Below the pieces are notes generated by a model. The model had not been told where the DNA came from. It saw only the letters and a program-made list of their open reading frames with translations, and made no database searches. DNA of 64,000 nt from positions 1,440,001 through 1,504,000 of the forward strand of contig OZ243916.1 of assembly GCA_965213675.1 (NCBI GenBank), written 5' to 3'. The position numbers and the translations under genes are program-made. Of the stretch, positions 33,263 through 63,592 are shown in pieces (the first letter of the stretch is position 1; each line of letters starts with the position of its first letter). This DNA is from an uncultured Candidatus Binatia bacterium. Lineage in GTDB: Bacteria > Desulfobacterota > Binatia > UBA9968 > JAJDTQ01.

Positions 33263-33368
33263 CACCTTATCCAGAGTGGTGGAGGGGCAGGCCCGTTGAA
33301 GCCACAGCAACCGTGTTCCCGAAGGGAACGCAGGTGCTAATTCCGGCCCGCAAGGGACAGATAAGGTG
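33263..33368 (+). ncRNA. SAM-I (S-box) riboswitch
   Basis: CACCTTATCCAGAG-GGTGGAGGG-GGCCC-TGAAGCC-CAGCAACC...GGTGCTAATTCC...GATAAGGTG, with P1 CACCTTATC/GATAAGGTG. Confidence 0.93.
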
Positions 33369-33373
33369 AGGAG

Positions 33374-33407
33374 AAACCTCTTCTCATCTTGGAAGAGGTT
33401 TTTTTTT
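33374..33407 (+). terminator. Intrinsic terminator (riboswitch expression platform)
   Basis: AACCTCTTC-loop-GAAGAGGTT followed by a T-run. Confidence 0.85.
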
Positions 33408-33496
33408 CGTCCAGGTGTTTCGTTCTGGCGTCGTTTTCGTTCTGGCGTCGTGTTGGGAGTGTCCCGAATCGGGAGCGCCCTTGGAGGCCGCGGTCG

Positions 33497-34279
33497 ATGC
33501 GTCTGAGTCCTGAGCAGGTTGAGCGCTACAGCCGGCAGATCATGATCCCCGACGTGGGCGGCAGCGGCCAGATCCGCCTGCGTCAGGCCAGCGTGCTCGT
33601 GGTGGGGGCGGGCGGTCTGGGATGTCCCGCCGCGTACTACCTGGCCGCGGCCGGCCTTGGGCGCCTGGGCATCGTCGACGGCGACGCCGTGGACCTGTCC
33701 AACCTGCAGCGGCAGATCCTTCACACCACGGCCGACCTGGACCGGCGCAAGGTGGAGTCGGCCCGGTCCCGGCTGCTGGCGCTCAACGCCGAGGTGGATG
33801 TGGAGGTCCACGCCACGCGCCTGACCGGCGAGAACGCGACGGAGCTGATGGCACCCTACGACTTCATCATCGACGGCAGCGACAACTTCGACACCAAGTT
33901 TCTCGTGAACGACGTGGCCGTGTCCCTGGGCAAGCCCTTCTCCCACGCGGGCATCGTCCGCCTCCAGGGACAGACCATGACCGTGGTGCCGCCGGAGAGC
34001 GCGTGTTACCGCTGCCTCTTCGAGGAGCCACCGGCGCCGGGGGAGGTGCCCGGCTGCCAGCAGGCGGGCATCCTGGGAGCGGTGGCCGGGACCATCGGCT
34101 CCATTCAGGCCACCGAGGCCGTCAAATACATTGTCGGCCTGGAGGAGCACCTGCTGGTGAACCGGATGCTAACCTACGACGCCAGGGCCATGGAAATTCG
34201 CAACGTACCCGTGGCGCCGAACCCGCGCTGCACGGCCTGCGGCGCGGGAGCGCCGGTTTCTCAAAGGAGTCACGCATGA
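33497..34279 (+). CDS. MoeB/ThiF-family adenylyltransferase (no rhodanese domain)
   Basis: RYSRQ, GAGGLG, SNLQRQ, DNF, CYRC, C-terminal CTAC. Confidence 0.92.
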   Translation: MRLSPEQVERYSRQIMIPDVGGSGQIRLRQASVLVVGAGGLGCPAAYYLAAAGLGRLGIVDGDAVDLSNLQRQILHTTADLDRRKVESARSRLLALNAEVDVEVHATRLTGENATELMAPYDFIIDGSDNFDTKFLVNDVAVSLGKPFSHAGIVRLQGQTMTVVPPESACYRCLFEEPPAPGEVPGCQQAGILGAVAGTIGSIQATEAVKYIVGLEEHLLVNRMLTYDARAMEIRNVPVAPNPRCTACGAGAPVSQRSHA

Positions 34280-35541
34280 GCTTTGTTCTAGGACTGCAAT
34301 GCCGGGAGTGCCGGCGGGACTATCCCACGGCGCCCCTGCATGTGTGCGAGGACTGCTTCGGCCCGCTGGAGGTGATGTACGACTACGACGGCATCCGCGA
34401 CAGCGTGAGCCGCGAGAAGATCGCCGCGCGCCCGCGGAACCTGTGGCGCTATCGCGAGTTGCTGCCCGTGGAGAAGGAGCCCCGGGTGGGCCTCTACTCC
34501 GGCTTCACCCCGCTCATCCGGGCCCGCCGCCTGGGGCAGGCGCTGGGCGTGCAGGAGTTGTACCTCAAGGACGACTCGGTGAACCATCCGACTTTCTCCT
34601 ACAAGGACCGGGTGGTATCGGTGGCCATCTCCAAGGCCATCGAGTTCGGCTACGAGACCGTTTCGTGCGCCTCCACCGGCAACCTCGCCAACTCGGTGTC
34701 GGCCCACGCCGCCAGCGCGGGCCTCAATTGCTACGTCTTCATTCCCGAAGGCCTCGAGGAGGGGAAGATCGTCGGCTCGGCCATCTACGGCCCGCGCACC
34801 GTGGCCATCAAGGGGACCTACGACGACGTGAACCGGCTGTGCAGCGAGATCGGCGACAAGTACCAGTGGGCCTTCGTCAACGTAAACCTTCGGCCCTACT
34901 ACTCCGAAGGCGCCAAGACCCATGCCTTCGAGGTGGCCGAGCAACTCGGCTGGAAGCTGCCGCGCCACATCGTGGTGGGCTCCGCGGGGGGCACCATCCT
35001 GCCCAAGCTGGGCAAGGGGTTCAAGGAGTTGCGCACGGTGGGGCTGGTGGACCCGGACGAGCCGTGCAGCATCTACTCCGCGCAGGCCGCCGGCTGCTCT
35101 CCCATCATCGACGCGCTCAAGCGCGGCACCGACGTCGTGGACCCGGTGAAGCCCGACACCATCGCCACATCCATCGCCATCGGCAACCCGGCCGACGGCT
35201 ACTACGTCATCCAGACGCTCCATGAAACCGGCGGCTGGGGCGAAAGCGTCACCGACGAGGAAATCCTCGACGGCATCCGCCTGCTGGCCTCCACCGAGGG
35301 CATCTTTACCGAACCCGCGGGCGGTACCGAGGTCGCAGTGACCAGGAAACTCATCGAGCAGGGACGGATCCCGCGGGACGAGTCCATCGTCATCTCCATC
35401 ACCGGGAACGGTTACAAGACCATCGAGACCGTAGCCCGCATCATCGACCGGCCCTACAGCATCGACGCCGGCCTGAACGACTTCGACGAGTTGTACGGCG
35501 CCCTGACGCGCGCGACCGAGCCGGACGCGAAGGCCGGATGA
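34276..35541 (+). CDS. Threonine synthase-like PLP enzyme (candidate O-phosphohomoserine sulfhydrylase)
   Basis: N-terminal CxxC/CxxC, PTFSYKDR, ASTGN, EGAKT, TGNG; ATGA overlap with moeB. Confidence 0.85.
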   Translation: MSFVLGLQCRECRRDYPTAPLHVCEDCFGPLEVMYDYDGIRDSVSREKIAARPRNLWRYRELLPVEKEPRVGLYSGFTPLIRARRLGQALGVQELYLKDDSVNHPTFSYKDRVVSVAISKAIEFGYETVSCASTGNLANSVSAHAASAGLNCYVFIPEGLEEGKIVGSAIYGPRTVAIKGTYDDVNRLCSEIGDKYQWAFVNVNLRPYYSEGAKTHAFEVAEQLGWKLPRHIVVGSAGGTILPKLGKGFKELRTVGLVDPDEPCSIYSAQAAGCSPIIDALKRGTDVVDPVKPDTIATSIAIGNPADGYYVIQTLHETGGWGESVTDEEILDGIRLLASTEGIFTEPAGGTEVAVTRKLIEQGRIPRDESIVISITGNGYKTIETVARIIDRPYSIDAGLNDFDELYGALTRATEPDAKAG

Positions 35542-35663
35542 GCGGACCCCGTCCGGCCCTCGACACGGATGCCCGCTCAGCGTGGGATCGTCGTGCGCGA
35601 GCCGCGGAAGCTGTTGAAATGGTCGGGTCCGGGTTCTATCCTGATCGAGAAGGAGGTTCTTTC

Positions 35664-35942
35664 ATGAGTGTTCGTGTACGCGTACCCACGCCGCTGAGAA
35701 AATTCACCCAGGGATCGGACGAAGTCGACGTCAACGGCGGCACCGTTCTGGCCATGCTGGAGGATCTGGAGCAGAAGCATCCCGGCATCAAGGAACGCAT
35801 CATGGACGAAGGCGGCAAGGTGCGCCGGTTCGTGAACGTCTATGTCAACGGCGACGACATCCGCTTTCTGCAGAACGTCGACACCGCGTTGAAGGACGGC
35901 GACAGCATCTCCATCGTCCCCGCCATCGCCGGCGGCGTTTGA
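35664..35942 (+). CDS. MoaD/CysO-like ubiquitin-fold sulfur carrier protein
   Basis: VPTPLR...RRFVNVYVNGDDIRF...PAIAGGV; AGGAGG RBS. Confidence 0.92.
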   Translation: MSVRVRVPTPLRKFTQGSDEVDVNGGTVLAMLEDLEQKHPGIKERIMDEGGKVRRFVNVYVNGDDIRFLQNVDTALKDGDSISIVPAIAGGV

Positions 35943-35969
35943 CCGTCCAACGGATTCCGCGCACGCCCC

Positions 35970-36965
35970 ATGCTCGCCGCGCTGAAACAGGACGGCGCTT
36001 CGCCGCCGCGCAAGCCACGCAAGGTCGACCGCATCGTCGAGCTTGTCGGCAACACGCCCTTGGTGCCGATCCGGCGGATCACCCGGGGACTGTCCCGGGG
36101 TGTGCGGGTGCTGGCCAAGCTGGAGGGCTTCAATCCGGGTGGGTCGGTCAAGGACCGCCCCGCCCTCAGGATGATCCGGGAAGCCATCGACACAGGGCAG
36201 CTCAGTCCCGGCCGCACCCTCATCGACTCCACTTCGGGCAACACCGGCATCGCCATCGCCATGATCGGCGCGGCGCTGGGCCATCCCGTACGGCTTGTGG
36301 TGCCCGCCAACGTGAGTGAGGAACGCAAGAACATCATTCGGTGGTTCGGCGCGGAGATCGTCTACAGCGATCCGCTGGAAGGATCCGACGGAGCCATCCG
36401 CCGCTGCCGCACCATCGTCGCGGAAGAGCCGGAACGGTACTTCAAGCCCGACCAGTACTTCAACCCGATGAACAGTCAGGCCCATTACGAGACCACCGGT
36501 CCCGAGATCCACGAACAGACCGAAGGGAGCGTCACCCACTTCATCGCCGGCATCGGCACCGGCGGCACCGTGATGGGGGTGGGACGTTTCCTGAAGGAGC
36601 GGGATTCGCGCATCCGCGTGATCGCGGCCGAGCCCGACTCGGCGCTGCACGGGCTCGAAGGGCTCAAGCACATGGCCAGCTCCATCGTTCCGGGGATCTA
36701 CCGGGAGGATGAGCTCGATCTCAAGATCCCGGTGTCCACCGAAGATGCCTACGACATGGTGTACCGGCTGAGCCAGGAGGAGGGGCTGCTGGTGGGGCAA
36801 TCCTCCGGCGCGGCCATGGTGGCGGCCATGGGTGTCGCCCGGCGGCTCACGCACGGCACCGTGGTGGTGGTGTTCCCCGACTTCGGTGCGCGTTACATGA
36901 CCACGAACCTCTGGACCACCTGGAAGGAAAGCCTTGACGTCGGCAACGTGGACTTTGCCATCTGA
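35970..36965 (+). CDS. cysM: Cysteine synthase (CysM-type)
   Basis: GNTPLV, NPGGSVKDR, TSGNTG, GTGGT, VGQSSG. Confidence 0.88.
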   Translation: MLAALKQDGASPPRKPRKVDRIVELVGNTPLVPIRRITRGLSRGVRVLAKLEGFNPGGSVKDRPALRMIREAIDTGQLSPGRTLIDSTSGNTGIAIAMIGAALGHPVRLVVPANVSEERKNIIRWFGAEIVYSDPLEGSDGAIRRCRTIVAEEPERYFKPDQYFNPMNSQAHYETTGPEIHEQTEGSVTHFIAGIGTGGTVMGVGRFLKERDSRIRVIAAEPDSALHGLEGLKHMASSIVPGIYREDELDLKIPVSTEDAYDMVYRLSQEEGLLVGQSSGAAMVAAMGVARRLTHGTVVVVFPDFGARYMTTNLWTTWKESLDVGNVDFAI

Positions 36966-37031: not shown

Positions 37032-38192
37032 ATGATCATTCGCTGTCCAAACTGCTCCACGACCTACAAGGTGGACGGTGGCGTCCTCGACGCGCCCAAG
37101 CCGAGTTTCCGTTGTTCCCGATGCAAGCACGTCTTCAGGGTGCAGGTGAGCTTGAAACCGGACACGACCGACGCGGACCGACTCGTGTCGGCCACGGATC
37201 CGGCTTCAACCCGTCACGCTCCGGACACGGACGCCGCGAGCCACGCGCCCGCCGCCGACCCCCAAGTTGCCGAAGATGCCGACTCCCACGGGGCTCCACA
37301 GGCGCAGTCCGACGACGACAATGCGGTGGCCGAAGTCCGTGTGGAGGAAGTCCGCGTTGAGGACATGGAGGACAAGGCGGAAACGCCGCCGGCGCCGGCC
37401 GGATCCCCCGAAGGAAATGCCGAGGAATCCGACGCGGACGGCGTGCCGCACAACCCCGAACTCCCCCACCTTGAATTCGACCCCAACCCCGCCGGGGTCC
37501 GTCTACCGGATGAAGCCGGGTTGCTTGCGTTCCAGAAGGACCACGGCCAGGACGACGCGGATGCGGAGCCCCAGCGCCCGCCGCCGGACTTCACGATCGA
37601 CGACGATTTCCTCATCCCGCCCAAACGGGAAGCACCCCCGCTGCCCCTGCCCGACGCCAAAGGCTCGGTCGTACCCTTTGTGAGTCTCATCGCGCTCATC
37701 CTGTTCGCCGCGGGCTTGGTGACGTTGATTCACATGACCCATCCCGAACCGCTGGACAATCTGTTGCGGCGGGTACCATGGTACGGCGCGGCCGTATTCG
37801 ACAACAGGCATTACAAGAGCACGCTGGTGTTCCAATCGCTGGTGTCGGGCGTGCGGCCGATTCTGAACCAGACGGAGGTCTTTGTCGTCTCCGGCAAGTT
37901 GCTCAACCGGAACGACCAGAGCGTCCGACAGGTTCAGATCGAAGCGCAACTCTTCGATGAGGGAGGAAAACAGGTAGGGCGAGAGGTGACCTTCGTGGGC
38001 AACGCCATTTCAGCCAGGATCATCGAAGACATGAGCTTCCGCGAGATCTCGCTGCTCCAAAGCCTCAAGCCTCAAAGCGCTTACCACATCCCGCCCCAAG
38101 GCTCGGCGGACTTCACCATCGTCTTCCCCAAGCCCAAGGCGGCGGTGGCCACCTTCAGTTGCCGGGTTCTGACGGCCGACGGCGCCGCTTGA
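37032..38192 (+). CDS. Zinc-ribbon (MJ0042-like) / DUF3426 membrane protein
   Basis: CPNC...CSRC, long acidic linker, one TM helix, Ig-like C-terminus. Confidence 0.8.
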   Translation: MIIRCPNCSTTYKVDGGVLDAPKPSFRCSRCKHVFRVQVSLKPDTTDADRLVSATDPASTRHAPDTDAASHAPAADPQVAEDADSHGAPQAQSDDDNAVAEVRVEEVRVEDMEDKAETPPAPAGSPEGNAEESDADGVPHNPELPHLEFDPNPAGVRLPDEAGLLAFQKDHGQDDADAEPQRPPPDFTIDDDFLIPPKREAPPLPLPDAKGSVVPFVSLIALILFAAGLVTLIHMTHPEPLDNLLRRVPWYGAAVFDNRHYKSTLVFQSLVSGVRPILNQTEVFVVSGKLLNRNDQSVRQVQIEAQLFDEGGKQVGREVTFVGNAISARIIEDMSFREISLLQSLKPQSAYHIPPQGSADFTIVFPKPKAAVATFSCRVLTADGAA

Positions 38193-39990: not shown

Positions 39991-40359
39991 ATGAACTGAC
40001 GGGTCGTTTTCCATGACGAGTTCGTGCCGGAGTTTCATGATCTCCACGTCAAGGTGCAGGATGAGGTGTACACGGTCGGCCGCTTGCTGGAGCAGTTCGG
40101 TCCGCAACTGGGTCGGCCGCAGGTGGATACGCTGAACGGGTCTCGGCACGCGAACATGAAGGAGATACGGTTCGGCGCGGCGGACGGGGAATGGCGGGTG
40201 GCCTTCGCCTTCGACCCCGCGCGTGAGGCCGTGCTTCTGGTGGCGGGCGACAAGTCGGGCGGCAGCGGGCGGCGGTTCTACCGTGCGCTCATCCGCAAAG
40301 CCGACGAGCGGTTCGACCGGCACCTTGCCCGCCTCGCCGATGAAAGGGGAACGCAATGA
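39991..40359 (+). pseudogene. RelE/HigB-like (Gp49/DUF891) toxin with a stop at codon 3
   Basis: MN*RVVFHDEF...GPQLGRPQVDTLNGSRHANMKEIR...AFDP...LLVAGDK. Confidence 0.8.
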
Positions 40360-40682
40360 CTGTGAGCCTTGATGAAATGATGGCGGAACTCGACCCCGAG
40401 CGACGGCGCAGGATTGAGGAACGGGCGGCCGAACTGATCGCCGAGGAAATGACGCTGCGCGAACTGCGCAAGGCCCGCGCGCTGACCCAGGCGAGCGTCG
40501 CGCGTGAGCTCGGCATCAGCCAGGACGCCATCTCCCGGCTGGAGAAGCGTAGCGACCTCCTGCTGTCCACGCTGCGCAGAACGGTGGAAGCAATGGGCGG
40601 CAGCCTGTCGCTGATCGCCAGATTCCCCGACCGCCCACCGGTCGAGCTTGCCGGCATCGCCGAACGCGACGCCCGCGATTAA
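40356..40682 (+). CDS. XRE/HigA-like HTH antitoxin
   Basis: LRELRKARALTQ...SRLEKRSDLLLSTLR; ATGA overlap with the toxin. Confidence 0.9.
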   Translation: MTVSLDEMMAELDPERRRRIEERAAELIAEEMTLRELRKARALTQASVARELGISQDAISRLEKRSDLLLSTLRRTVEAMGGSLSLIARFPDRPPVELAGIAERDARD

Positions 40683-40850: not shown

Positions 40851-41128
40851 ATGAGCACACGACGACGGTTCAGCGGAGACTTCAAGGCGAAGCGCTGGAG
40901 GCGCTGCGCGGAGACAAGACGATCCAGGAGCTCGCGGCGCGGCACAAGGTCCATCCGAACCAAGTGAGCACGTGGAAGCAGCGTGCGGTGGAGGGGATGA
41001 AGGAGGTGTTCTCGAAGGGAGCCGAGCGGGCACGAGGAGACCACGAGGGGGAGGTCCGGGACCTGCACGCGAAGATCGGAGAGCTGACGGTGGAGCGGGA
41101 TTTTTTGGCCAAGGGGCTCAAGTGGTGA
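40851..41128 (+). pseudogene. IS3 OrfA, frameshifted
   Basis: MSTRRRFSGDFKAK then a frameshift near 40892 to ALEALRGDKTIQELAARHKVHPNQVSTWK. Confidence 0.8.
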
Positions 41129-42048
41129 GCCGGGAGAAGCGCCGGGGGATGATCGAGCCCGGCCATCCCAAGCTCAGCTTGAGCCGTCAATGCCATTTGC
41201 TTCGAGTGAGCCGATCCTCTGTGTACCACAGGCCCAAGGGCGAGAGCGCGGAGAATCTGGCGTTGATGCGCCGGATCGACAAGCTGTTCCTGGAGTACCC
41301 CTTCTACGGCAGCCGCCAGATGGTCCGCCATCTGTGGCGGGAGCGAGTCCGAGTGGGTCGTCACCGGGTGCGGCGTCTGATGCGCCTGATGGGGCTCCAG
41401 GCCATCTATCAGGCGCCGCGCACCACCCAACCGCACCCCGAGCACCGGGTCTATCCCTATCTGCTCAAGGGGGTCGCCATCGAACGGCCCAATCACGCGT
41501 GGACCTCCGACATCACCTATATCCCTGTCCAGAGTGGCTTCCTGTACCTGGTGGCGGTCATGGACTGGGCCACCCGCCGGGTGCTCTCCTGGAGGCTGTC
41601 GAACACCCTCGATGCCCGCTTCTGTGTCGAGGCCCTCTCAGAGGCTCTGGAACGCTACGGCCCTCCCGAGATCTTCAACACGGACCAAGGCAGCCAGTTC
41701 ACCAGCCTGGAGTTCACCTCCGTCCTCAAAGACTCCGGCATTGCCATCTCCATGGACGGAAGGGGCCGGCGCATGGACAACATCTTCATCGAGCGCCTGT
41801 GGCGCTCCCTCAAGTACGAGGCTGTCTACCTGCACGAGCTGACCGACGGCTTCGCCGCCCAAAGGGCCATCGCCAACTGGCTCCACTTCTACAACACCCA
41901 AAGACCTCATTCCGCCCTCGCCGGCTCCACCCCGGCGGAGGCCTACGAACGAGGACTCCAGAGGCAGGCCGGACCTCACACCCCGCCCGCCCCTCTGACA
42001 GTTCCTTCGGAACACGAAGACCTGATAAACGGGACCTTGGCGGCATGA
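41125..42048 (+). CDS. IS3 OrfB DDE transposase (rve)
   Basis: WTSDITYI, NTDQGSQF, DNIFIERLWRSLKYE, YNTQRPHSAL. Confidence 0.9.
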   Translation: MSREKRRGMIEPGHPKLSLSRQCHLLRVSRSSVYHRPKGESAENLALMRRIDKLFLEYPFYGSRQMVRHLWRERVRVGRHRVRRLMRLMGLQAIYQAPRTTQPHPEHRVYPYLLKGVAIERPNHAWTSDITYIPVQSGFLYLVAVMDWATRRVLSWRLSNTLDARFCVEALSEALERYGPPEIFNTDQGSQFTSLEFTSVLKDSGIAISMDGRGRRMDNIFIERLWRSLKYEAVYLHELTDGFAAQRAIANWLHFYNTQRPHSALAGSTPAEAYERGLQRQAGPHTPPAPLTVPSEHEDLINGTLAA

Positions 42049-43337: not shown

Positions 43338-46244
43338 TCACGCATACGCGGCCACGGGCGCGCAGGTGCACACCAGATTACGGTCGCCCCAGGCGTTGTC
43401 CACCCTGCCCACCGGGACCCAGAACTTGCGCTGCCGCACCCACGCCAGCGGAAACGCCGCCTTGTCCCGCGAATACGAGTGCGGCCAGTCGTCCGAGAGC
43501 AGGTGCGGCGCACTGTGAGGCGCGTTCTTGAGCACGTTGTCCCGCGGGTCCGCGGCACCGGTCTCGATCTCGCGGATCTCCTCGCGGATGGCCAGCATGG
43601 CGTCGCAGAAGCGGTCCAGTTCCTCGCGCGACTCACTCTCGGTGGGTTCGATCATCAGCGTGCCCGCCACGGGCCAGGACATGGTGGGTGCGTGGAAGCC
43701 GTAGTCCATGAGCCGCTTGGCCACGTCTTCCACGGTGACATCGGCCGACGCCTTGAACGGACGCACGTCGACAATGCATTCGTGGGCCACCATATCGTTC
43801 TTGCCCCGGTAGAGGATCCGGTAACCCGAGGACAGCCGGTGCGCGATGTAGTTGGCGTTGAGCACCGCCACCTGGGTCGCGCGGGTCAGGCCGGCGGCGC
43901 CCATCATGGCGATGTACGCCCACGATATCGGCAGGATGCCGGCGCTGCCCCAGGGAGCCGACGACACCGCGCTGATGCCCCCGGCCGGGCCGCACTCGGG
44001 CACGGTCCCGTGGCCCGGCAGATACCCCTTGAGGTGCTCGGCCACGGCCAGCGGGCCGACCCCCGGCCCGCCGCCGCCGTGGGGGATGCAGAAGGTCTTG
44101 TGCAGGTTCAGGTGGCAGACGTCCGGGCCAATGCGCCCCGGTTGGCACAGCCCCACCAGTGCGTTCAGGTTGGCGCCGTCCAGGTAGACCTGACCGCCGT
44201 GCTCGTGAACGATGCGGCAGATCCGGGTGATGCCCTCCTCGAATACGCCGTGGGTGGACGGGTAGGTGACCATCAGCGCGCCGAGTTCGCCGCTGACGCG
44301 CTCGGCCTTGGCGCGCAGGTCGTCCAGGTCGATGTTACCGTCGTCGTCGCAGTCCACCACCACCACGCGCATACCCGCCAGCACCGCGCTGGCGGGATTG
44401 GTGCCGTGGGCGGAACTGGGAATGAGGCAGACCTCGCGCCGTCCCTGACCCATGGCGGCATGATGTTGCCGGATCACCAGCAAGCCCGAGTACTCCCCCT
44501 GGGAGCCGGCGTTGGGCTGCACCGACACTGCCGCGAAACCCGTGATGGCGGCCAGCCATTCCTCCAGTTGGGCGATGAGGCGCCGGTAGCCCCGGGTCTG
44601 GTCCGCGGGCGCAAACGGGTGCATGCGCGCGAACTCGGGCCAGGTCACGGGAATCATCTCGGTGGTGGCGTTGAGCTTCATGGTGCATGATCCCAGCGGA
44701 ATCATCGACTGCACCAGGCTCAGGTCCCTGGCCTGGAGCTCCGCCATGTAGCGCAGCATCTGCGTCTCGGAGTGGTGGCGGTTGAATACCGCCGCTTCCA
44801 GATACCCGCTTTCGCGCACACAACCGCGGGGCAGGTGCGACCGAGCGTCCCGCGCCACCGCCGCCGTCAGGTCTTCGTCCGCCGCGGGCGCGCCGAACAC
44901 ATCCAGCAACGCGCCCAGATCCTCCACCGTGGTGGTCTCGTCCAGGGACACGTGCAACTGCCCTTCGGACGGACGTCCGAGATTGATGCCGCGCTCGGCC
45001 GCCGTGAGCTGGATTGCGCGGGCACGTTCCGGCCCGGCTTCAATGCGCAGCGTGTCGAAGAAATGATCGGCGGCCAGGGAAAAGCCGGCGGCGCGCAGCC
45101 GCTGCGCCAGGAAGGACGCGTGGCGATGCACCCGCTCGGCGATGTTCCTGAGACCGGCGGGGCCGTGATAGACGGCGAACATGGACGCCATGACCGCCAG
45201 CAGCACCTGTGCGGTGCAGATATTGCTGGTGGCCTTCTCGCGCCGGATGTGCTGTTCCCGGGTCTGCAGCGCCAGCCGCAGGGCGCGCGCGCCGTGGGCG
45301 TCCCGGGACACCCCCACCAAGCGTCCGGGCATCATGCGCCGGTAACGCTCGCGGGTGGCGAGGAAACCGGCATGGGGACCGCCGAAACCCATGGGCACGC
45401 CGAAACGCTGGGCGCTGCCCACCACCACGTCCGCGCCCATCTCCCCCGGCGGCTTGAGCAGGCACAGGCTCAGGAGATCGGTGGCGACGATTCCCATCTG
45501 CCCGCCCTCGCGGCAACGCCGCAGGAAGGCATCGAGATCGGGGATGGCGCCGCTGGCCGCGGGATACTGGATGAAGGCGGCGAAGGCATCCGCCGGCGGC
45601 GCGCCGGCGCCGGTCACCAACTCCACGCCTATGGGACGCGCGCGCGTACCCAACACCTCCAGGGTCTGGGGAAAGACGTCCTCGCAGACGAAGAGCTTCC
45701 TGCGCGGAGCGAGGCTGCGCGCGCGGCCCTGGTTGCCGGCGTGCAACGCCAGGAACACGGCCTCGGCGGCCGCCGTTCCCTCGTCAAGCATGGAGGCGTT
45801 GGCGATGTCCATGGCCGTCAGGTCGGTGACCAGGGTCTGGAAGTTCAGCAGCGCCTCCAGGCGCCCCTGGGAGATTTCCGGCTGGTAGGGTGTGTAGGCG
45901 GTGTACCAGCCCGGATTCTCGAGAATGTTCCGGAGGATGACAGCGGGTGTGTGGCAGTCGTAGTAGCCCATCCCGAGACAGGAACGGACAGGCCGGTTTT
46001 CCGCGGCGATGGCGCGCGCCTCGCGCACAAGCTGTTCCTCGGTCAGGGGCTCGGGCAGGTCCAACGTGTCCCGGAACCGGATGTCGTCGGGCACCGCCCG
46101 CTGCACCAGTTGTTCGAGACCATCCAGGCCCAGGACGGCGAGCATCTCCCCCACTTCCGCCGCGCCGGGGCCGATGTGCCGTGACGAAAACAGATCCCGA
46201 AACGAACTTCTGTGGTCTGTCGGCTCCACGGCGCGATCCTCCAT
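43338..46244 (-). CDS. gcvP: Glycine dehydrogenase (decarboxylating), P protein
   Basis: [40 protein letters not shown]. Confidence 0.97.
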
Positions 46245-46260
46245 GCTCCAGCGCTCTGCG

Positions 46261-46668
46261 TCAGGCGCCGTCGTCGTCCGGTTGCCCCTCGCAGTACTCC
46301 TGGTACTCCTCGTGGGTCATGAGATCGTCGAGCTCACCCACGTCCGACATGGTCACCTTGACGATCCACCCCTCGCCGTACGGATCCTCGTTGACCAGCT
46401 CCGGCGTGTCCGCCAGCGCGTCGTTGACCTCCACCACGGCGCCGCTCACCGGCGCGTAGAGATCCGACACCGCCTTCACGGATTCCACCGCGCCGAACGG
46501 ATCGTCCTTGCTGAGGTTCTCCCCCATTGCCGGCGTCTCCACGTACACCACCTCTCCCAGTTCGTTCTGGGCGAAATCGGATATGCCGATGAGGGCGCCG
46601 TCCGTGTCCTCCACCAGCACCCACTCGTGCTCCCTCGAATACCGCAGCCCCTTGGGGTACTCCATCAT
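46261..46668 (-). CDS. gcvH: Glycine cleavage system H protein
   Basis: [20 protein letters not shown] lipoyl motif. Confidence 0.96.
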
Positions 46669-46694
46669 TTCCTCCTTCGCGGCCAGCCGATGCG

Positions 46695-47783
46695 CTACCG
46701 GACGAACGGCACGCGGACGACGCGGGCGCGCGCCCGCCTGCGGCGGATTTCCACTTCCACCTCGGTGTCCAGCGCCGCCGCCTCCGGCTCCACGTAACCC
46801 AGCGCGATGGCCTTGCCCAGGGTCGGCGACAGCGTGCCGCTGGTGATGCGTCCCACCTCGCGCCCTTCGCGCCAGATCGGATACCCTTGACGGGCAATGC
46901 CCGCCTCTTCCATCATCAACCCGGTCAGGCGGCGCGTGAGCGGCTCCTTCCGCGCCAACGCCGCGGAGCCGATGAACGGCCCCTTGTCGAGCTTGGTGAC
47001 CCAGCCGAGCCGGGCTTCCGGCGGCGTCGTGGTCTCGTCCAGCTCATGCCCGTAGAGCGAGTAGCCCTTTTCCAGACGGAGGGTGTCGCGCGCGCCCAGA
47101 CCGGCGGGCTCCACGTCGCCGGACGCCGTGAGAACGTCCCACAGCGCGGCGCCGTCCGCCGCGGCGCAGTACAGCTCGAAACCGTCCTCCCCGGTGTACC
47201 CGGTGCGCGAAATGGTGCAGTGGATTCCGTGCACCGCGCCATTCACGAAATGGAACGGCTTGAGCGCCGGCAGCTCCGCCGCGGTCAACGGTTGCAGCAC
47301 GGCCGCGGCCACGGGCCCCTGAAGCGCCAGCAGCGCATAGGCGTCGCTCACGTCCTCCACGGTCACGTCGTCGTCCGCGTGATCCACGAGCCAATGGAAA
47401 TCAACGTCCGCGCGGGCGGCGTTGACGCACAGGAGATACCGCTCCTCTTCCAGCCGGAAGAGCACCAGGTCGTCGATCACCCCCGCCCGATCATTCAGCA
47501 ACAGGGTGTACTGCGCCTGCAACGGCCGCAGGCGCGCGACGTCGTTGGTGGTGACCCGCTGGCAGAAACGCGAAGCCCCTGCGCCGGCAACCTCGAACTC
47601 GCCCATATGGCTGACATCGAAAAGCCCGGCCCGGGAGCGCACGGCCGCGTGCTCGGCCTGAATGCCGCGGTACTGGACCGGCATCTCCCATCCCGCGAAC
47701 GGCACCATGCGCGCGCCCAGCGCCTTGTGCCGCCCGTGCAGCGGTGTTTTTCGGAGAACCTTGCCTTGCGCTTCGTCCGCCAT
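46695..47783 (-). CDS. gcvT: Glycine cleavage system T protein (aminomethyltransferase)
   Basis: FAGWEMP, FDVSHMG, TGYTGEDGFE, GLGARDTLRLE. Confidence 0.96.
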   Translation of the reverse strand: MADEAQGKVLRKTPLHGRHKALGARMVPFAGWEMPVQYRGIQAEHAAVRSRAGLFDVSHMGEFEVAGAGASRFCQRVTTNDVARLRPLQAQYTLLLNDRAGVIDDLVLFRLEEERYLLCVNAARADVDFHWLVDHADDDVTVEDVSDAYALLALQGPVAAAVLQPLTAAELPALKPFHFVNGAVHGIHCTISRTGYTGEDGFELYCAAADGAALWDVLTASGDVEPAGLGARDTLRLEKGYSLYGHELDETTTPPEARLGWVTKLDKGPFIGSAALARKEPLTRRLTGLMMEEAGIARQGYPIWREGREVGRITSGTLSPTLGKAIALGYVEPEAAALDTEVEVEIRRRRARARVVRVPFVR

Positions 47784-47885
47784 GGTCGAGAACCCTGGGA
47801 CGCCGTGGGGCTTGTGACGACGCTTCCGCGAGACGGCCGCCACGCCCTGCCGCCTTCATGAACCTGCGCGCCCGCCGGTGCGCGG

Positions 47886-48737
47886 TCACGCCTGCGCGGC
47901 GGAACGCTGCGCCGACAACAGGGTGTTGGACAACAGCATGCAGATGGTCATGGGGCCGACGCCGCCGGGCACCGGCGAGATCCACGACGCGCGCTCCCGC
48001 GCGGCTTCGAACTCCACGTCGCCCGCGAGCTTGCCGGTGGGCAGCCGGTTGATGCCCACGTCGATGACCACCGCGCCGGGCTTGATCCACTCGCCGCGGA
48101 TGGCGTGGGTCTTGCCCACCGCGGCCACCACCACGTCCGCCCGGCTCACCTCTCCCGCGAGATCCGCGGTGCGCGAATGACACAGCGTGACCGTGGCGTG
48201 CCGTTCCAGCAGCATCAGCGCCACGGGCTTGCCCACGATGTGGCTGCGCCCCACCACCACCGCGTTCCGGCCCTTGAGCGCGCAACCCACGGAGTCCAGC
48301 ATGCGCAGGATGCCCAGCGGCGTGCACGGCCTGAAACCCTCGCCGCCGGAGAGCAGCAGCCCCTGATTCACCGGGTGAAATCCGTCCACGTCCTTGGCCG
48401 GCGACACGGCCTCGAGGATGCGCGCGCCGGCGATGTGGTCCGGCAGCGGCAGTTGCACGAGGATGCCGTGGATGGCGCGATCCTCATTGAGACGGGCGAT
48501 CAGCTCCAGCAGCTCGCGCTCCGGCGCCGACGCCGGCAACAGATGCTCCACCGAGCGGATGCCCACCTCCGCGCACGCCTTCTCCTTGTTGCGCACGTAC
48601 ACCCGCGACGCCGGGTCGTCTCCTACCAGCACCACGCCCAGACCGGGCACCACGCCGTGGTCGTTCCTGAGCTGCTGCGCGCCCGCCCGCACTTCGCCGC
48701 GCACCTGCTGCGCCACCGCCTTGCCGTCGATGATCAT
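47886..48737 (-). CDS. folD: Methylenetetrahydrofolate dehydrogenase/cyclohydrolase
   Basis: [32 protein letters not shown]. Confidence 0.96.
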
Positions 48738-48956
48738 CGTGCTGTTGCCTCGATCAGGTTGAGAAAAGCGCCTCACAAAACCGGTAACACGCCCTTGAAA
48801 CGAGGTCAATAAATTGACGTGAAACCGTAGCCGGCGCTTCTTGACACTCCTGGGGTGCTCACGTACCAATTCAATCATGATCACCGGCGTCCCCAAGGAA
48901 TCGAGAATCGAAGAGTGCCGCACGTCATGGCCCCTTGCGGTGGAGGTGTGCTGCGC

Positions 48957-49892
48957 ATGAGACTCGTGACCCGGCCCGATTTCGACGGCATCGTCTGCGG
49001 CTCGCTCATCACCGCGGTGGAAGACATCGAGGCCTTCCTCTTCGTCGAGCCCAAGTTCATGCAGGACGGCGCCGTGGATATACGCGCCGGCGACGTCATC
49101 GCCAACCTCCCCTACCACCCGGCGTGCGCCCTGTGGTTCGACCATCACTTCACCAACGGGGCCGCGGGCTTTGACCGGCCCGTGGTTCCGGGCCGCGGCG
49201 CTTTCCGGCTCGCGCCAAGCGCCGCGCGGGTGGTGTTCGAATACTACACCGAGGTGCCGAGCGCGTCGGCGGCGCGCTACAGCCGGGGCCTCGACCTGAT
49301 GCGCACCAGCCGGTTCACGGCGCTGCTCGAGGACACCGACAAGATCGACGGAGGCTACCTCACGCGGGCCGACGTGCTGCACCCCTCAGGATACGTGCTC
49401 ATCTCCATGACCCTCTACGGCAAGGACGGCGCCGAGGAGCCCTACTGGCGCAGCCTGATCGAGATGATCCGCGACCGCACCCTGAAAGAGGTGCTCCGCG
49501 ATCCCGAGGTCCAGCGGCGCTGCGCGCGGGTCCTGGGCCTTCAGGAACAGCTCCGGCGGCAACTTCTGGAGCACGCGCAACTCCGCGGCAACGTCATCTA
49601 TCTCGACCTGCGCGCCGCCGAGGATCTCACCGACGCCAACCGTTTTCTGCTCTACACGCTGTTTCCGGAGGGGAACATCTCCATGAAGGTCTCGCGCGAT
49701 ACGCAGCGGGCCGACACCACGGCCATTTCGGTGGGCTACAACATCTTCAACACCACATCCAAGGTCAATGTCGGCGACCTGCTCAGCCACTACGGCGGCG
49801 GCGGCCATCGCGTCGTAGGGTCGTGCCGGGTGCCGGACACGGACGCGGAACGCGCCGTGAACGCCATCCTGCGGCACATCACCGAGGCCTGA
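48957..49892 (+). CDS. DHH-family phosphoesterase (exopolyphosphatase/nanoRNase-like)
   Basis: [19 protein letters not shown]. Confidence 0.85.
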
Positions 49893-60470: not shown

Positions 60471-61832
60471 CTACGACGAAGGAGCCTCGATGGCGCGGAA
60501 CACCGCGTCGCGCACCTTGTCGTAGTCGGCGGGGACTTCGATGGGGGTATTGGGGTGCCGGGAGGTCACTTCCTCCAGGCGCCCCTCGTGGTACTTGATC
60601 TTGAACTCGGGGAATTTGAGGCCGTTGGCGGTGGAGATGACCACCACGCGGTGGTGCTTGCCGATGACGCCGCGGTCCACCAGTTTGAACAGGGCGGCCA
60701 GGGCCACGCCCGTGTGGGGACAGTTGAACAGGCCGGTGCGGTCGGCGCGGGCGGCGGCATCCGCCAACTCGTCCTCGGTGGCCTGCTCCACCACGCCATC
60801 GAAGTACTGCAGGGCGCGGATGGCCTTCCTGACGCTCACCGGGTTGCCGATCTGGATGGCGCTGGCCAGGGTGGGCCGGGCCTGCACGGGCTCGAACTCG
60901 TCGAAGCCGTTGAGATAGCTCAGATACAGCGGGTTGGCGCGCTCGGCCTGGGCGCAGGCGATGCGCGGCAGCTTGGAGATCATGCCCAGGTCGTGCATGA
61001 GCTTGAACCCCTTGCCCAGGGCGCTGACATTGCCCAGGTTGCCGCCGGGGATGATGACCCAGTCGGGCACCTGCCAGTCGAACTGCTGCGCCAACTCCAT
61101 GCTGACGGTCTTCTGGCCCTCCACCCGAAGGGAGTTCATGGAGTTGGCCAGGTAGATGTTGTGGCGCGTACACAGCTCCCGCACCAAGGCCATGCAGCCG
61201 TCGAAGTCGCTGTCGATGGCCAGGGTGACGGCGCCGTGGGCGATGGGCTGGATGAGTTGCGCCACCGAGACCTTGTTCCGGGGCAGGAACACGATGGCGC
61301 GGATGCCCGCCGCCGCGCAGTAGGCGGCCAGAGCGGCGGAGGTGTCGCCGGTGGAAGCGCAGGCCACCGCGGGGATATCCACCCCTTCCGATATCATCTG
61401 GCGCACCATGGACACGAGCACGGTCATGCCCAGGTCCTTGAAGGAGCCGGTGTGGCTGTTGCCGCACAGCTTGACCCAGAGGTCCTCGACGCCGATCTCC
61501 TGGCCCAGGCGCTCCGCCCAGAAGAGGTTGCTGCCCCCCTCCAGGGTCGATACGACGTTGGTGTCCGCCACGTCTGGACAGACCATCTCGCGCTTGCCCC
61601 AGACCGAGCTGCCATAGGGCCACTGGTTGCACATCAAGCGCTGGTCGAAGAGGTCGCGCCAGTATTGCGGCGTCTTCTTCCGCAGCAACTCCAGGTCATG
61701 GCGCACCTCCAGGAGATTGCCGCAGCGCGGGCACGCGTAGATGATCTCGGTGAGACCATAGCGGCCCGGACAGCCGGCGATGCACTGAAACCACGCCCTG
61801 TAGAGATCGGAGGAAATCGCCTGCGCCTGCAT
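60471..61832 (-). CDS. thrC: Threonine synthase
   Basis: [44 protein letters not shown]. Confidence 0.9.
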
Positions 61833-62095: not shown

Positions 62096-63592
62096 CTACT
62101 GGCGGATGGCCGCGTTCTGCTCTGTGCTCGGAAACACCAGCGATTTGATGACCACGGGCACCGCGCCGGACGAGGGAATCAGCGCCCCCACGTCGATGTA
62201 GTCAAACTCCTGCAGGGCGATGCCGTCCACCGAGATGATGGGCTTGTCGAGCTTCATCTCCTCCTTGAAGTGCAGGCCGATGATGCCGCCGATGTCGCCG
62301 TCGTTGACCAGGAGCAGCGGATGCCCCTGCTCCAGCACCGGCTTGAGGCCCTCCACCACCGCCCCGCAGAAGCCCTGCAGCCGGGCGAAAGTCGCCGACC
62401 CTTCCCAGTGGAACGCCAGCGCCACGGGCTGGCGGCCGTCCCGCAAATCCAACCGCCTGAGCGCGTTGTCGATGGCGCCGACGACCTTGGCCGGATCGAT
62501 GTCGTCCTCCCATTCGAAATCGATGCGCACCACCGGAACGTTTCGCACCGGCACGGCATCCGCGGGGGAAATGAAAATGGTGCTGCCGCTGACCTGGATG
62601 GTGTACTGAGAAGCGCCGATGACGGTGGCGCGGATGCGCGCCGCCGGCTCCAGAATGGGAACGCCCAGGCTCTCCACCCGCCGGCGGATCTCCCGGCCCA
62701 GCATCGCGCCCATGTCGCCGAAGCCGTCGCCGGCGTGACCATAGATGAACTCGGACACGCCGCCCGAGAAGGTTACGGCGTCGATCTTGCCGCGATACGA
62801 CAGCGGCGGGAGCCGCAGCAATTCCCGGGTCTCGCCGGTCAACTCCTGCTGGTTCACCACCTCGAACAGCCGATCCGCCATCTCCGAGGCAATGGCCTCC
62901 AGGGTCTGCTCGTTCAGGACCTGGCCCAACTCCAGATCGACGCCCACCTTGGCGCCGTGACGCCGGCCCGCCTCTTCCACCCGCACCACCGTGTTGGCGC
63001 CGTCCATGGCCAGGAGCCGCGCGCCCACGTCGATGGCGCTGACCTCGCGCACACGACCGCCCGCGCACACCGCGATCTTGCTGGTGCCGCCGCCCACGTC
63101 GATGTTGAGCACCACCGCGTCCTCACTCCCCGAACGCGCCGCCGCACCGGAGCCGTGGGCGGCCATGGTGGTCTCGAGTCCGTCGCCGGCCGTCACCGAC
63201 ACGAACCGGCCCGCCTCGGCGGCGAACAACTCGGCGATGGCGCGTGAATTGCGCCGCCGCACCGCCACGCCCGTGAGGATCAGCGCACCGGTGTCCACGT
63301 CCTCGCGCTTGAGCGCCGCGCGCTCGTACTGCTGGTTGATGAAGCGCTCCAGACGCTCCATGTCGATGGTAAGGTCGTCGGTGTAGGGCGTGAGCAGAAT
63401 CTCCGATTCGCTCAGCACGGTGCGCTTCTTGACGACGTACCGGGTGCCTTCCTGGCTCAGCTCAAGGCGCGAGAACACCAGGTGGGACGTGGACGAACCG
63501 ATGTCCACGCCCACGCTGGTGAGCTTGATCTCGTCCTCGTCAACGATGTGCCTGCCGGAACCGGTGAAACCAAGGGAGCCTGCGTCCGCCAC
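62096..63592 (-). CDS. eutA: EutA-like reactivating-factor ATPase
   Basis: [54 protein letters not shown]. Confidence 0.85.

Follow-up and report, generated by a model that had tools for sequence, protein, structure and literature searches.

A SAM-I-controlled gene set in a Candidatus Binatia bacterium is a probable MetM/MetO-type operon for homocysteine synthesis

The 64-kb stretch of DNA analysed here (hereafter the window; contig OZ243916.1 of an uncultured Candidatus Binatia bacterium, positions 1,440,001 to 1,504,000, G+C = 66.5%) contains an S-adenosylmethionine (SAM)-I riboswitch aptamer and a terminator hairpin followed by four co-oriented genes on the plus strand, which encode an E1 adenylyltransferase, a ThrC-like pyridoxal phosphate (PLP) enzyme, a small sulfur carrier and a CysM-like PLP enzyme. 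Comparison of these genes with related loci from other bacteria makes it likely that this locus is a SAM-repressed operon of the MetM/MetO type, which would form homocysteine from O-phosphohomoserine and which carries its own E1. An earlier reading made from the sequence alone had taken the ThrC paralogue of the operon for a carrier-dependent O-phosphohomoserine sulfhydrylase, and comparison supports this assignment well: the family forms a clade separate from the threonine synthases, positions at the phosphate site are altered, a carrier gene is found in 68 of 80 related loci and a SAM-I element in 25 of 80, and the window contains a separate ThrC.

The operon and its SAM-I leader

The features on which the argument is built are listed here with their coordinates in the window, their strand and the model or structure that identified them.

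33264-33367, plus strand: SAM-I riboswitch aptamer (RF00162, 80.1 bits)
33368-33408, plus strand: expression platform, an intrinsic-terminator-like hairpin with a U-run (minimum-free-energy folds)
33497-34279, plus strand: MoeB/ThiF-type E1 adenylyltransferase, 260 amino acids (PF00899)
34288-35541, plus strand: ThrC-like PLP enzyme, 417 amino acids, proposed MetM type (PALP, TIGR00260)
35664-35942, plus strand: ThiS/MoaD-fold sulfur carrier, 92 amino acids, CysO/MetO type (PF02597)
35970-36965, plus strand: CysM-like PLP enzyme, 331 amino acids (PALP, TIGR01138)
60471-61832, minus strand: ThrC2, plant-type threonine synthase (match to Arabidopsis TS1, 1e5x)

The sequence-only reading had placed a SAM-I aptamer with a terminator ahead of four co-oriented genes, and this layout is borne out by Rfam, by folding and by domain models; the bounds that it gave to the operon (33263-36965) are right to within one base, and the separate thrC that it reported at 60471-61832 is indeed present on the minus strand. 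The intergenic spacing is 8 nucleotides between the E1 and ThrC-like genes, 122 between the ThrC-like and carrier genes and 27 between the carrier and CysM-like genes. The window has one carrier gene and one E1 gene, with no further copies of either.

The element ahead of the operon is a real riboswitch aptamer. RF00162 matches it over the whole model (1-108 of 108) with 80.1 bits (E = 3e-17), above the gathering score of 44.4; it is the sole Rfam match in the window, and it scores 106.6 bits with our own covariance model R1. Minimum-free-energy folding showed a 17-pair hairpin (33368-33407) directly 3' of the P1 helix that runs into a U-tract and has the core AAACCUCUUC/GAAGAGGUUU. This hairpin was missing from the list returned by a simple consensus terminator scan, and constrained folds gave no clear antiterminator for the riboswitch. 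Binding of SAM and SAM-dependent termination of the leader are predicted from the aptamer family and from the fold. A tandem direct repeat of 16-17 nucleotides in two copies (TTTCGTTCTGGCGTCG) lies further along the leader at 33418-33450 (plus strand), past the terminator and ahead of the E1 start codon.

The ThrC-like enzyme is set apart from threonine synthases

The second gene of the operon encodes a PALP-family protein (E = 2.3e-65) with an N-terminal CxxC...CxxC ribbon, and its PLP lysine, K106 in the motif SYKDR, aligns with the FKDR lysine of the solved threonine synthases. It scores 220 bits against the solved Aquifex ThrC (2zsj); the canonical ThrC located beside a member of the family in a Nitrospirota locus (L023) scores 507 bits against the same structure. 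The closest protein matches are 85-89% identical, and matches at 78-81% identity come from metagenome-assembled genomes (MAGs) named 'Candidatus Binatia bacterium' or 'Deltaproteobacteria bacterium'. Cysteate synthase was considered as an identity for the enzyme and ruled out (TIGR03844, 52 bits against a cut-off of 324.9).

A FastTree phylogeny was computed from 166 rows comprising 81 ThrC-like sequences, 4 plant-type and 3 canonical threonine synthases and 78 of 150 library representatives, the remaining 72 having been left out for a length below 385 or above 470 amino acids. All 81 ThrC-like rows form one clade with a local support of 100, distinct from two further groups, one of the 4 plant-type rows (support 100) and one of the 3 canonical rows together with P0228 (support 97), and the two ThrCs of the window fall in separate clades. 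We then defined a discriminating position as one with a single residue in at least 92% of 65 ThrC-like sequences and another residue in at least 7 of 8 canonical or plant-type sequences. Eleven positions meet this definition (ThrC-like residue, then canonical residue): V109/G, V110/M, L133/T, A134/S, Y178/F, C185/V, N200/S, R202/N, Y205/R, A233/G and S295/A. Three of these residues, L133, R202 and Y205, are kept in 81 of 81 ThrC-like rows and in 35 of the 78 library representatives.

Counted along the alignment, L133, N200, R202 and Y205 correspond to T88, S155, N157 and R160 of the Thermus ThrC. The canonical and plant-type set is uniform here, each of its 8 sequences having T, S, N and R at the four positions and GM where the ThrC-like enzyme of the window has VV (KDRVV in place of KDRGM). 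We take the four Thermus residues to be the ones that hold the phosphate which steers the addition of water; if this is right, their replacement fits a changed reaction in the ThrC-like family.

ThrC2, encoded some distance away on the opposite strand, matches Arabidopsis TS1 (1e5x) with 569.8 bits (E = 4e-170) over residues 15-444, the next structure reaching 201 bits, and it passes TIGR00260 with 214 bits (cut-off 167). It has the canonical residue at all 11 discriminating positions. Judged by these matches ThrC2 is a plant-type threonine synthase and is probably the housekeeping ThrC, so that threonine synthesis is already covered by a gene within the window. The match to TS1 takes in the N-terminal region, which in the plant enzyme is presumably SAM-binding. 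A gene for an EutA-like ATPase (PF06277, 404 bits; 62096-63592, minus strand) adjoins ThrC2.

In related loci the ThrC-like gene is mostly accompanied by a carrier gene and in some cases by SAM-I

A profile search with the ThrC-like family gave at least 589 candidate loci, the best 80 of which, from about 15 phyla, were analysed. Genes were counted by tblastn with the window proteins and with proteins from those loci, and their identities were confirmed by Pfam scans of 150 and a further 38 neighbouring open reading frames (ORFs). A carrier gene was present in 68 of the 80 loci and lay within 700 nucleotides downstream in 62; for the 71 loci with at least 1 kb of downstream sequence the corresponding counts were 62 and 56. 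E1 genes were found in 19 of these loci and genes for a JAB/Mec-type peptidase in 11; a NIL domain, as a separate gene or in a fusion, was present in 26, and a CysM of the type found in the window occurred in 9 and an ordinary CysK in 10. The Pfam scans also placed Rrf2 regulators, sulfite reductase, TusA, DsrE/H and 3'-phosphoadenosine-5'-phosphosulfate (PAPS) reductase among the neighbours, and several loci besides the window hold a canonical or plant-type ThrC as well.

A covariance model built from three SAM-I instances detected SAM-I upstream of the genes and on the same strand in 25 of the 80 loci. When 16 of these 25 were re-tested with Rfam all 16 matches were confirmed, and the re-test found no SAM-I in 10 loci that had been negative with our model. 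The distribution by phylum was as follows.

Planctomycetota: SAM-I in 10 of 12 loci
Verrucomicrobiota: 5 of 5 loci
Acidobacteriota: 5 of 10 loci
Binatota: 1 of 1 locus
'Myxococcota' (records titled Deltaproteobacteria): 1 of 2 loci
Chloroflexota: 1 of 3 loci
Actinomycetota: 1 of 2 loci
Kiritimatiellota: 1 of 1 locus
Cyanobacteriota: 0 of 25 loci
Nitrospirota: 0 of 7 loci

The nearest loci from species representatives, L001 and L002 of the Binataceae, encode ThrC-like proteins 68-69% identical to that of the window and have the same gene order (E1, ThrC-like, carrier, CysM-like), with SAM-I ahead of the E1 gene in L002. Directly after the CysM-like gene both have a NIL gene (PF09383; L001:2969-3184 and L002:8623-8838), and NIL-domain genes, or NIL domains fused to the C-terminus of the carrier, recur in 24 further loci. 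In Acidobacteriota loci that have no carrier nearby, the ThrC-like gene is embedded in aspartate-family operons: L010 has a thrB-like (GHMP) kinase, the ThrC-like gene, a plant-type ThrC and then aspartokinase/homoserine dehydrogenase, L016 has SAM-I, the ThrC-like gene, aspartokinase and homoserine dehydrogenase, L020 has SAM-I, homoserine dehydrogenase and the ThrC-like gene, and L038 has homoserine dehydrogenase, a thrB-like kinase and the ThrC-like gene. These neighbours tie the ThrC-like enzyme to the supply of O-phosphohomoserine. At three Acidobacteriota loci (L010:4786-11153, L017:6001-11143 and L014:1166-3213) the MetM-like gene is directly followed by an orthologue of the window ThrC2 (62-67% identical), and in L010 and L017 a fused aspartokinase/homoserine dehydrogenase gene comes next after this plant-type ThrC; such an order of genes suggests an operon devoted to the O-phosphohomoserine branch point.

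Nonomuraea gerenzanensis provides an actinomycete version, in which a SAM-I element (68.7 bits, Rfam) precedes a ThrC-like gene and then a gene for a 91-residue carrier ending in GG. The Nonomuraea ThrC-like protein is 53.6% identical to that of the window and carries the motifs KDRVV, STGNLA and NVNLRPYY. A Micromonosporaceae protein is 49-51% identical to the window enzyme; the best 120 matches of a search seeded with the Micromonosporaceae representative P0129 were all proteins of Micromonosporaceae type. In the Microcystis novacekii locus L075, where the carrier gene is adjacent, the ThrC-like protein is 58% identical. What appeared to be fusions of the ThrC-like protein with the carrier in L037 and L071 were rejected, there being a stop codon between the two genes.

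The E1 and the sulfur carrier

The E1 is a single-domain protein (PF00899 ThiF, E = 1.4e-81, residues 11-246) in whose translation a glycine-rich ATP loop and CxxC...CxxC motifs are visible. Its best NCBIfam models are MoeB PRK08762 (312 bits, cut-off 449), the SAMP-activating E1 (299 bits) and MoeZ (285 bits), the last aligning only over model positions 15-262 of 392. No rhodanese domain is present on the E1, whose 260 amino acids contain ThiF only.

The carrier (PF02597, E = 1.6e-17) has as its best solved relatives CysO, 3dwg_C, and 4n6e_B, with 86 bits each and alignments over residues 1-91 that end at the GG. Its own C-terminus reads AGG-V, that is, a single residue (V92) stands beyond GG91. 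The carriers of L001 and L002, which both end in GGR, likewise have an extension of one residue after the GG. Among 70 carriers encoded in related loci, GG is the very end in 43, the chain goes on for 1-8 more residues in 19, and in 8 the protein is long or joined to NIL or E1. Since extra C-terminal residues would have to be trimmed before use, these termini agree with the maturation of MetO by Mec that has been cited for Streptomyces.

The fusion of carrier and E1 occurs in an Actinomycetota MAG (L047:4410-8536), where genes for JAB, ThiS, CysK, a MetM-like protein, the carrier-E1 fusion and NIL follow PAPS reductase and TauE genes. Such a fusion is natural 'Rosetta stone' evidence for the pairing of carrier and E1.

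The CysM-like enzyme belongs to a distinct clade

The last gene of the operon encodes a protein whose best models are TIGR01138 cysM (349 bits, cut-off 394) and cysK (293 bits); it stays under every trusted cut-off, those of the cysM and cysKM models included. No solved structure stands out as its nearest relative: generic O-acetylserine sulfhydrylases score 234 bits, and the CysM of Mycobacterium tuberculosis (Mtb; 3dwg_A) comes at about rank 34 with 204 bits. A true orthologue of Mtb CysM, from the Mec-CysO-CysM cluster of Nonomuraea, scores 506 bits against that enzyme. The match of the CysM-like protein to the cysteine desulfhydrase model Cds1 is weak (49.6 bits, cut-off 600).

The PLP lysine (K61) and the TSGNTG loop of cysteine synthases are kept in the CysM-like clade, all 10 members of which share the invariant segment HG[LI]EGLKHM (HGLEGLKHM in the window). 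Relative to CysK the clade has a deletion of 6-7 residues, as in the Mtb CysM type, and K233, found in 10 of 10 sequences of the clade, occupies the position of R222 in chain 3dwg_A and of a Gln in CysK. By our own count (offset 2) we take R222 to be Arg220 of native Mtb CysM, the key position of that enzyme. The clade was found in 9 of the 80 loci, none of which is without a carrier; an E1 is likewise present in each of the 9 when the partial matches in L001 are included, and JAB in 5. In L013 and L027 an ordinary CysK is encoded as well. Other PALP neighbours, about 40% identical, were considered as Mtb-type CysM and rejected as CysK (361 bits to Mtb CysK1), with the exception of L076:8940, which has the Mtb-type tail.

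By these comparisons the CysM-like clade is neither CysK nor the mycobacterial CysM. Because of its constant co-occurrence with the carrier, the E1 in nine loci, JAB in five and the CysM-type segment, the CysM-like enzyme would most likely take its sulfur from the carrier thiocarboxylate and act on a phospho-ester. This active-site segment is known to distinguish CysK from CysM, and the CysO-dependent CysM of the mycobacterial type is described as confined to actinobacteria (both according to the review PMC9547175).

A proposed pathway and the points against it

The following sequence of events would account for the operon. At high SAM, as the riboswitch family and the predicted fold suggest, the aptamer would hold P1 closed and the adjacent terminator would form, so that transcription stops before the genes; at low SAM the operon would be transcribed. 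The last residue of the carrier, Val, would be removed to expose the Gly-Gly end, probably by a JAMM/Mec-type peptidase encoded elsewhere. The MoeB-like E1 would then adenylate the terminal glycine, and sulfide, or the persulfide of a separate donor, would convert it to the thiocarboxylate; a separate donor would be needed because the E1 is without a rhodanese domain. The ThrC-like enzyme would turn O-phosphohomoserine into the PLP-vinylglycine intermediate and add the carrier thiocarboxylate at C-gamma, whereas a threonine synthase would add water at C-beta, and an acyl shift followed by hydrolysis would release homocysteine. The thiolation at C-gamma is suggested by homology, by synteny and by the altered residues of the phosphate site. 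As a less secure extension, the CysM-like enzyme would most likely combine the same thiocarboxylate with O-phosphoserine to give cysteine. With threonine coming from the separate plant-type ThrC, O-phosphohomoserine would be the branch point between methionine and threonine.

The sequence-only reading had one carrier feeding both homocysteine and cysteine synthesis, which goes beyond the evidence: this consists of the adjacency of the genes and the active-site features of an uncharacterised CysM-like clade. We give about an even chance to the CysM-like enzyme drawing on the same carrier for cysteine. The more complete scheme, in which one carrier, charged by a rhodanese-less E1, supplies both PLP enzymes, each at the branch point of its own phospho-ester (the MetM-like enzyme making homocysteine from O-phosphohomoserine, the HGLEGLKHM clade cysteine from O-phosphoserine), under a common SAM shut-off, with ThrC2 competing for O-phosphohomoserine, is put forward tentatively and is rather less probable than that.

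A number of observations weigh against a MetM/MetO-type operon. The ThrC-like enzyme passes the curated threonine synthase model TIGR00260 with 282 bits against a cut-off of 167. According to PMC12172450, a Microcystis homologue made threonine from O-phosphohomoserine and deaminated threonine in vitro, and its high expression was not accompanied by a rise in methionine. The E1 is without the rhodanese domain of MoeZ and no sulfur donor was seen in the window. The carrier needs trimming, yet a JAMM/Mec (JAB) peptidase was not found in the 64 kb, where tblastn at E ≤ 1 gave only a 21-bit match at chance level and a Pfam scan of 43 ORFs gave none; nor did tblastn or that Pfam scan find a NIL-domain gene in the window. 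The CysM-like enzyme is not orthologous to Mtb CysM (Rv1336), with 204 against 506 bits and Lys in place of Arg. Membership of the MetM family was judged through proxies for S. albulus MetM (A0A059WBP2), namely the proteins from Nonomuraea and Micromonosporaceae. As to the survey, the 80 loci are the best-scoring ones and their counts come from a biased sample, 12 of them have no carrier in the fetched stretch (3 of these having less than 1 kb downstream), and 55 have no SAM-I, including all 25 cyanobacterial loci.

Competing explanations

In one rival explanation the ThrC-like enzyme is a second genuine threonine synthase inside a cysteine operon of the CysO/CysM type, the carrier, E1 and CysM-like enzyme making only cysteine. 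Its 282 bits are above the TIGR00260 cut-off, its relatives go by the name 'threonine synthase' in databases, the Microcystis homologue has threonine synthase and deaminase activity in vitro according to PMC12172450, and the closest solved relative of the carrier is CysO. We nonetheless consider this explanation very improbable. The carrier goes with the ThrC-like gene in 68 of 80 loci, compared with 9 for the window-type CysM and 10 for CysK, and mostly neither CysM kind is nearby; SAM-I stands ahead of the ThrC-like and carrier genes alone in Planctomycetota, Verrucomicrobiota and Actinomycetota; 81 of 81 members have other residues at the phosphate-site positions of ThrC; the window and several other loci already have a canonical or plant-type ThrC; and there is no obvious logic in high SAM switching off a threonine synthase.

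It is also conceivable that all four genes serve methionine, with the CysM-like enzyme supplying sulfide or persulfide from cysteine to the E1 and the carrier in a protein-mediated transsulfuration from cysteine to homocysteine. Placing the whole operon under a SAM riboswitch, a methionine signal, would suit this, as would the missing sulfur donor of a rhodanese-less E1, the position of the CysM-like clade below the trusted cut-offs of cysM and cysKM, its presence in L013 and L027 in addition to an ordinary CysK, a sign that the two are not redundant, and the weak match to Cds1 (49.6 bits against a cut-off of 600). The enzyme, however, has retained two marks of cysteine synthases, the PLP lysine and the TSGNTG loop, its deletion and basic residue are typical of the type that depends on O-phosphoserine and CysO, and its best hidden Markov model is cysM (349 bits); we regard a sulfur-supplying role as unlikely. 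Least probable is a thiocarboxylate system whose product is not an amino acid but, for example, a thio-cofactor, a thiosugar or some other secondary metabolite that contains sulfur. Secondary metabolism does reuse carriers of the CysO kind, and the joint best solved relative of the carrier, 4n6e_B, is listed only as 'ThiS/MoaD family protein'; we presume 4n6e to be a thiosugar-pathway complex. But core sulfur amino-acid metabolism is indicated by the SAM-I control, by the occurrence in many phyla and by neighbours such as hom, a thrB-like kinase, aspartate kinase, sulfite reductase, PAPS reductase and CysK, and the Pfam scan of 43 window ORFs found no biosynthetic-cluster genes flanking the operon.

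Relation to known systems

The MetM/MetO-type assignment can be set against several described systems. The pathway of Streptomyces albulus, in which MetM and MetO work with MoeZ and Mec, was reportedly described by Hasebe et al. in Appl Environ Microbiol in 2024, as papers citing that work have it. Like the window, S. albulus has a ThrC homologue beside a ThiS-like carrier, an upstream SAM riboswitch and end-trimming of the carrier, and O-phosphohomoserine is the presumed substrate in both. In the window, in contrast, the E1 is encoded in the operon as its first gene and is rhodanese-less, hence not MoeZ, a CysM-like gene belongs to the operon, no Mec/JAMM gene is nearby and the host is a member of the Binatia and not of the Actinomycetota. 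GapMind 2026 (PMC13759103) lists MetO, Mec, MoeZ and MetM of Streptomyces with experimental evidence in its Table 2; according to its supplement, MetM often receives the wrong annotation of threonine synthase, and Mec carries out the maturation of MetO. The riboswitch, ThrC-like gene and carrier of Nonomuraea have the layout that is reported for S. albulus metM/metO as far as the available description goes, and we took the Nonomuraea locus, by sequence, as the actinomycete form of metM-metO.

According to PMC12172450, S. albulus metM has a SAM riboswitch upstream and homologues in cyanobacteria, the one from Microcystis sharing 51.6% identity with MetM. The 'ThrC' of Microcystis aeruginosa that this text describes beside a metO-like gene is of the same protein family as the ThrC-like enzyme of the window, but the cyanobacterial loci are without SAM-I (0 of 25).

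The Mtb Mec-CysO-CysM/MoeZ system makes cysteine from CysO-thiocarboxylate and O-phosphoserine. Among solved structures the window carrier is nearest to CysO, and in both cases the carrier and CysM-type genes are adjacent and the enzyme lacks a segment that CysK has and is basic at the position of R222 (3dwg_A). The CysM-like protein of the window, however, is not orthologous to Mtb CysM and has another C-terminal tail, the window has no Mec, and its operon is under SAM control. Nonomuraea gerenzanensis, whose 11.85 Mb chromosome is recorded as 'plasmid I' and is barely annotated (L081/L082, NZ_LT559118.1), has both the SAM-I/MetM-like/MetO-like locus and a separate Mec-CysO-CysM locus, and so this actinomycete has two carriers for the two pathways.

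In Wolinella succinogenes (HcyS/HcyF/HcyD/MetY) the sulfur of homocysteine comes from a carrier thiocarboxylate (PMC8191291). The Wolinella PLP enzyme, MetY, is an O-acetylhomoserine sulfhydrylase that differs in fold type and acts on an acetyl ester, whereas the window has a PLP enzyme of the ThrC fold with a presumed phosphate-ester substrate; neither the operon nor the set of 43 window ORFs covered by the Pfam scan includes a MetY-type O-acetylhomoserine sulfhydrylase. The C-terminal extension of the Wolinella carrier is removed by a metalloprotease.

Plants offer a parallel of a different kind. They too have a plant-type ThrC at an O-phosphohomoserine branch point, and in the window O-phosphohomoserine would be shared by threonine and methionine synthesis with SAM as regulator. 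In plants SAM is an allosteric activator of threonine synthase, while in the window it would shut off the operon of the methionine branch through RNA.

Significance

Since both ThrCs of the window pass TIGR00260, automatic annotation would call both 'threonine synthase', and this naming would leave the lineage without a visible route to homocysteine. Reading the riboswitch-linked copy as MetM-like would fill this gap for Binatia-like bacteria, and the same reading applies to many loci with the gene pair in Planctomycetota, Verrucomicrobiota, Acidobacteriota, Nitrospirota and cyanobacteria. The signature KDRVV, STGNL and N-x-R-P-x-Y in MetM-like proteins, as opposed to KDRGM, STGNT and S-x-N-P-x-R in threonine synthases, offers a simple and testable separation of the two, and its residues may switch the reaction from addition of water at C-beta to addition of sulfur at C-gamma. 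The CysM-like clade with its EGLKHM segment is a candidate for carrier-dependent cysteine synthesis outside the actinobacteria. If one carrier does serve both enzymes, the operon would be a bacterial counterpart of the plant branch point between methionine and threonine, and carrier-dependent cysteine synthesis would not be confined to actinobacteria.

The suggestion of novelty, that the route may be undescribed in this lineage, is overstated. A literature search gave no paper on the pathway in Binatota; the distribution survey of Hasebe 2024 may cover some of these phyla, and the gene pair is spread over many phyla. As the MetM/MetO route has been published since 2024, is widespread and is included in GapMind 2026, there is no new pathway here; what is new is the lineage, the four-gene layout of the SAM-I operon, the discriminating residue signature and the CysM-like clade.

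Other features of the window

A zinc-ribbon/DUF3426 gene (37032-38192) comes after the CysM-like gene. About 3 kb downstream of the operon a Gp49-like/HTH pair resembling a toxin-antitoxin system lies beside an rve-family transposase (40024-40682 and 40972-42048, both plus strand), and together they may be a small mobile insertion. A glycine-cleavage cluster encoding the P, H and T proteins (43338-49382, minus strand) includes a FolD homologue with an N-terminal extension of about 215 amino acids.

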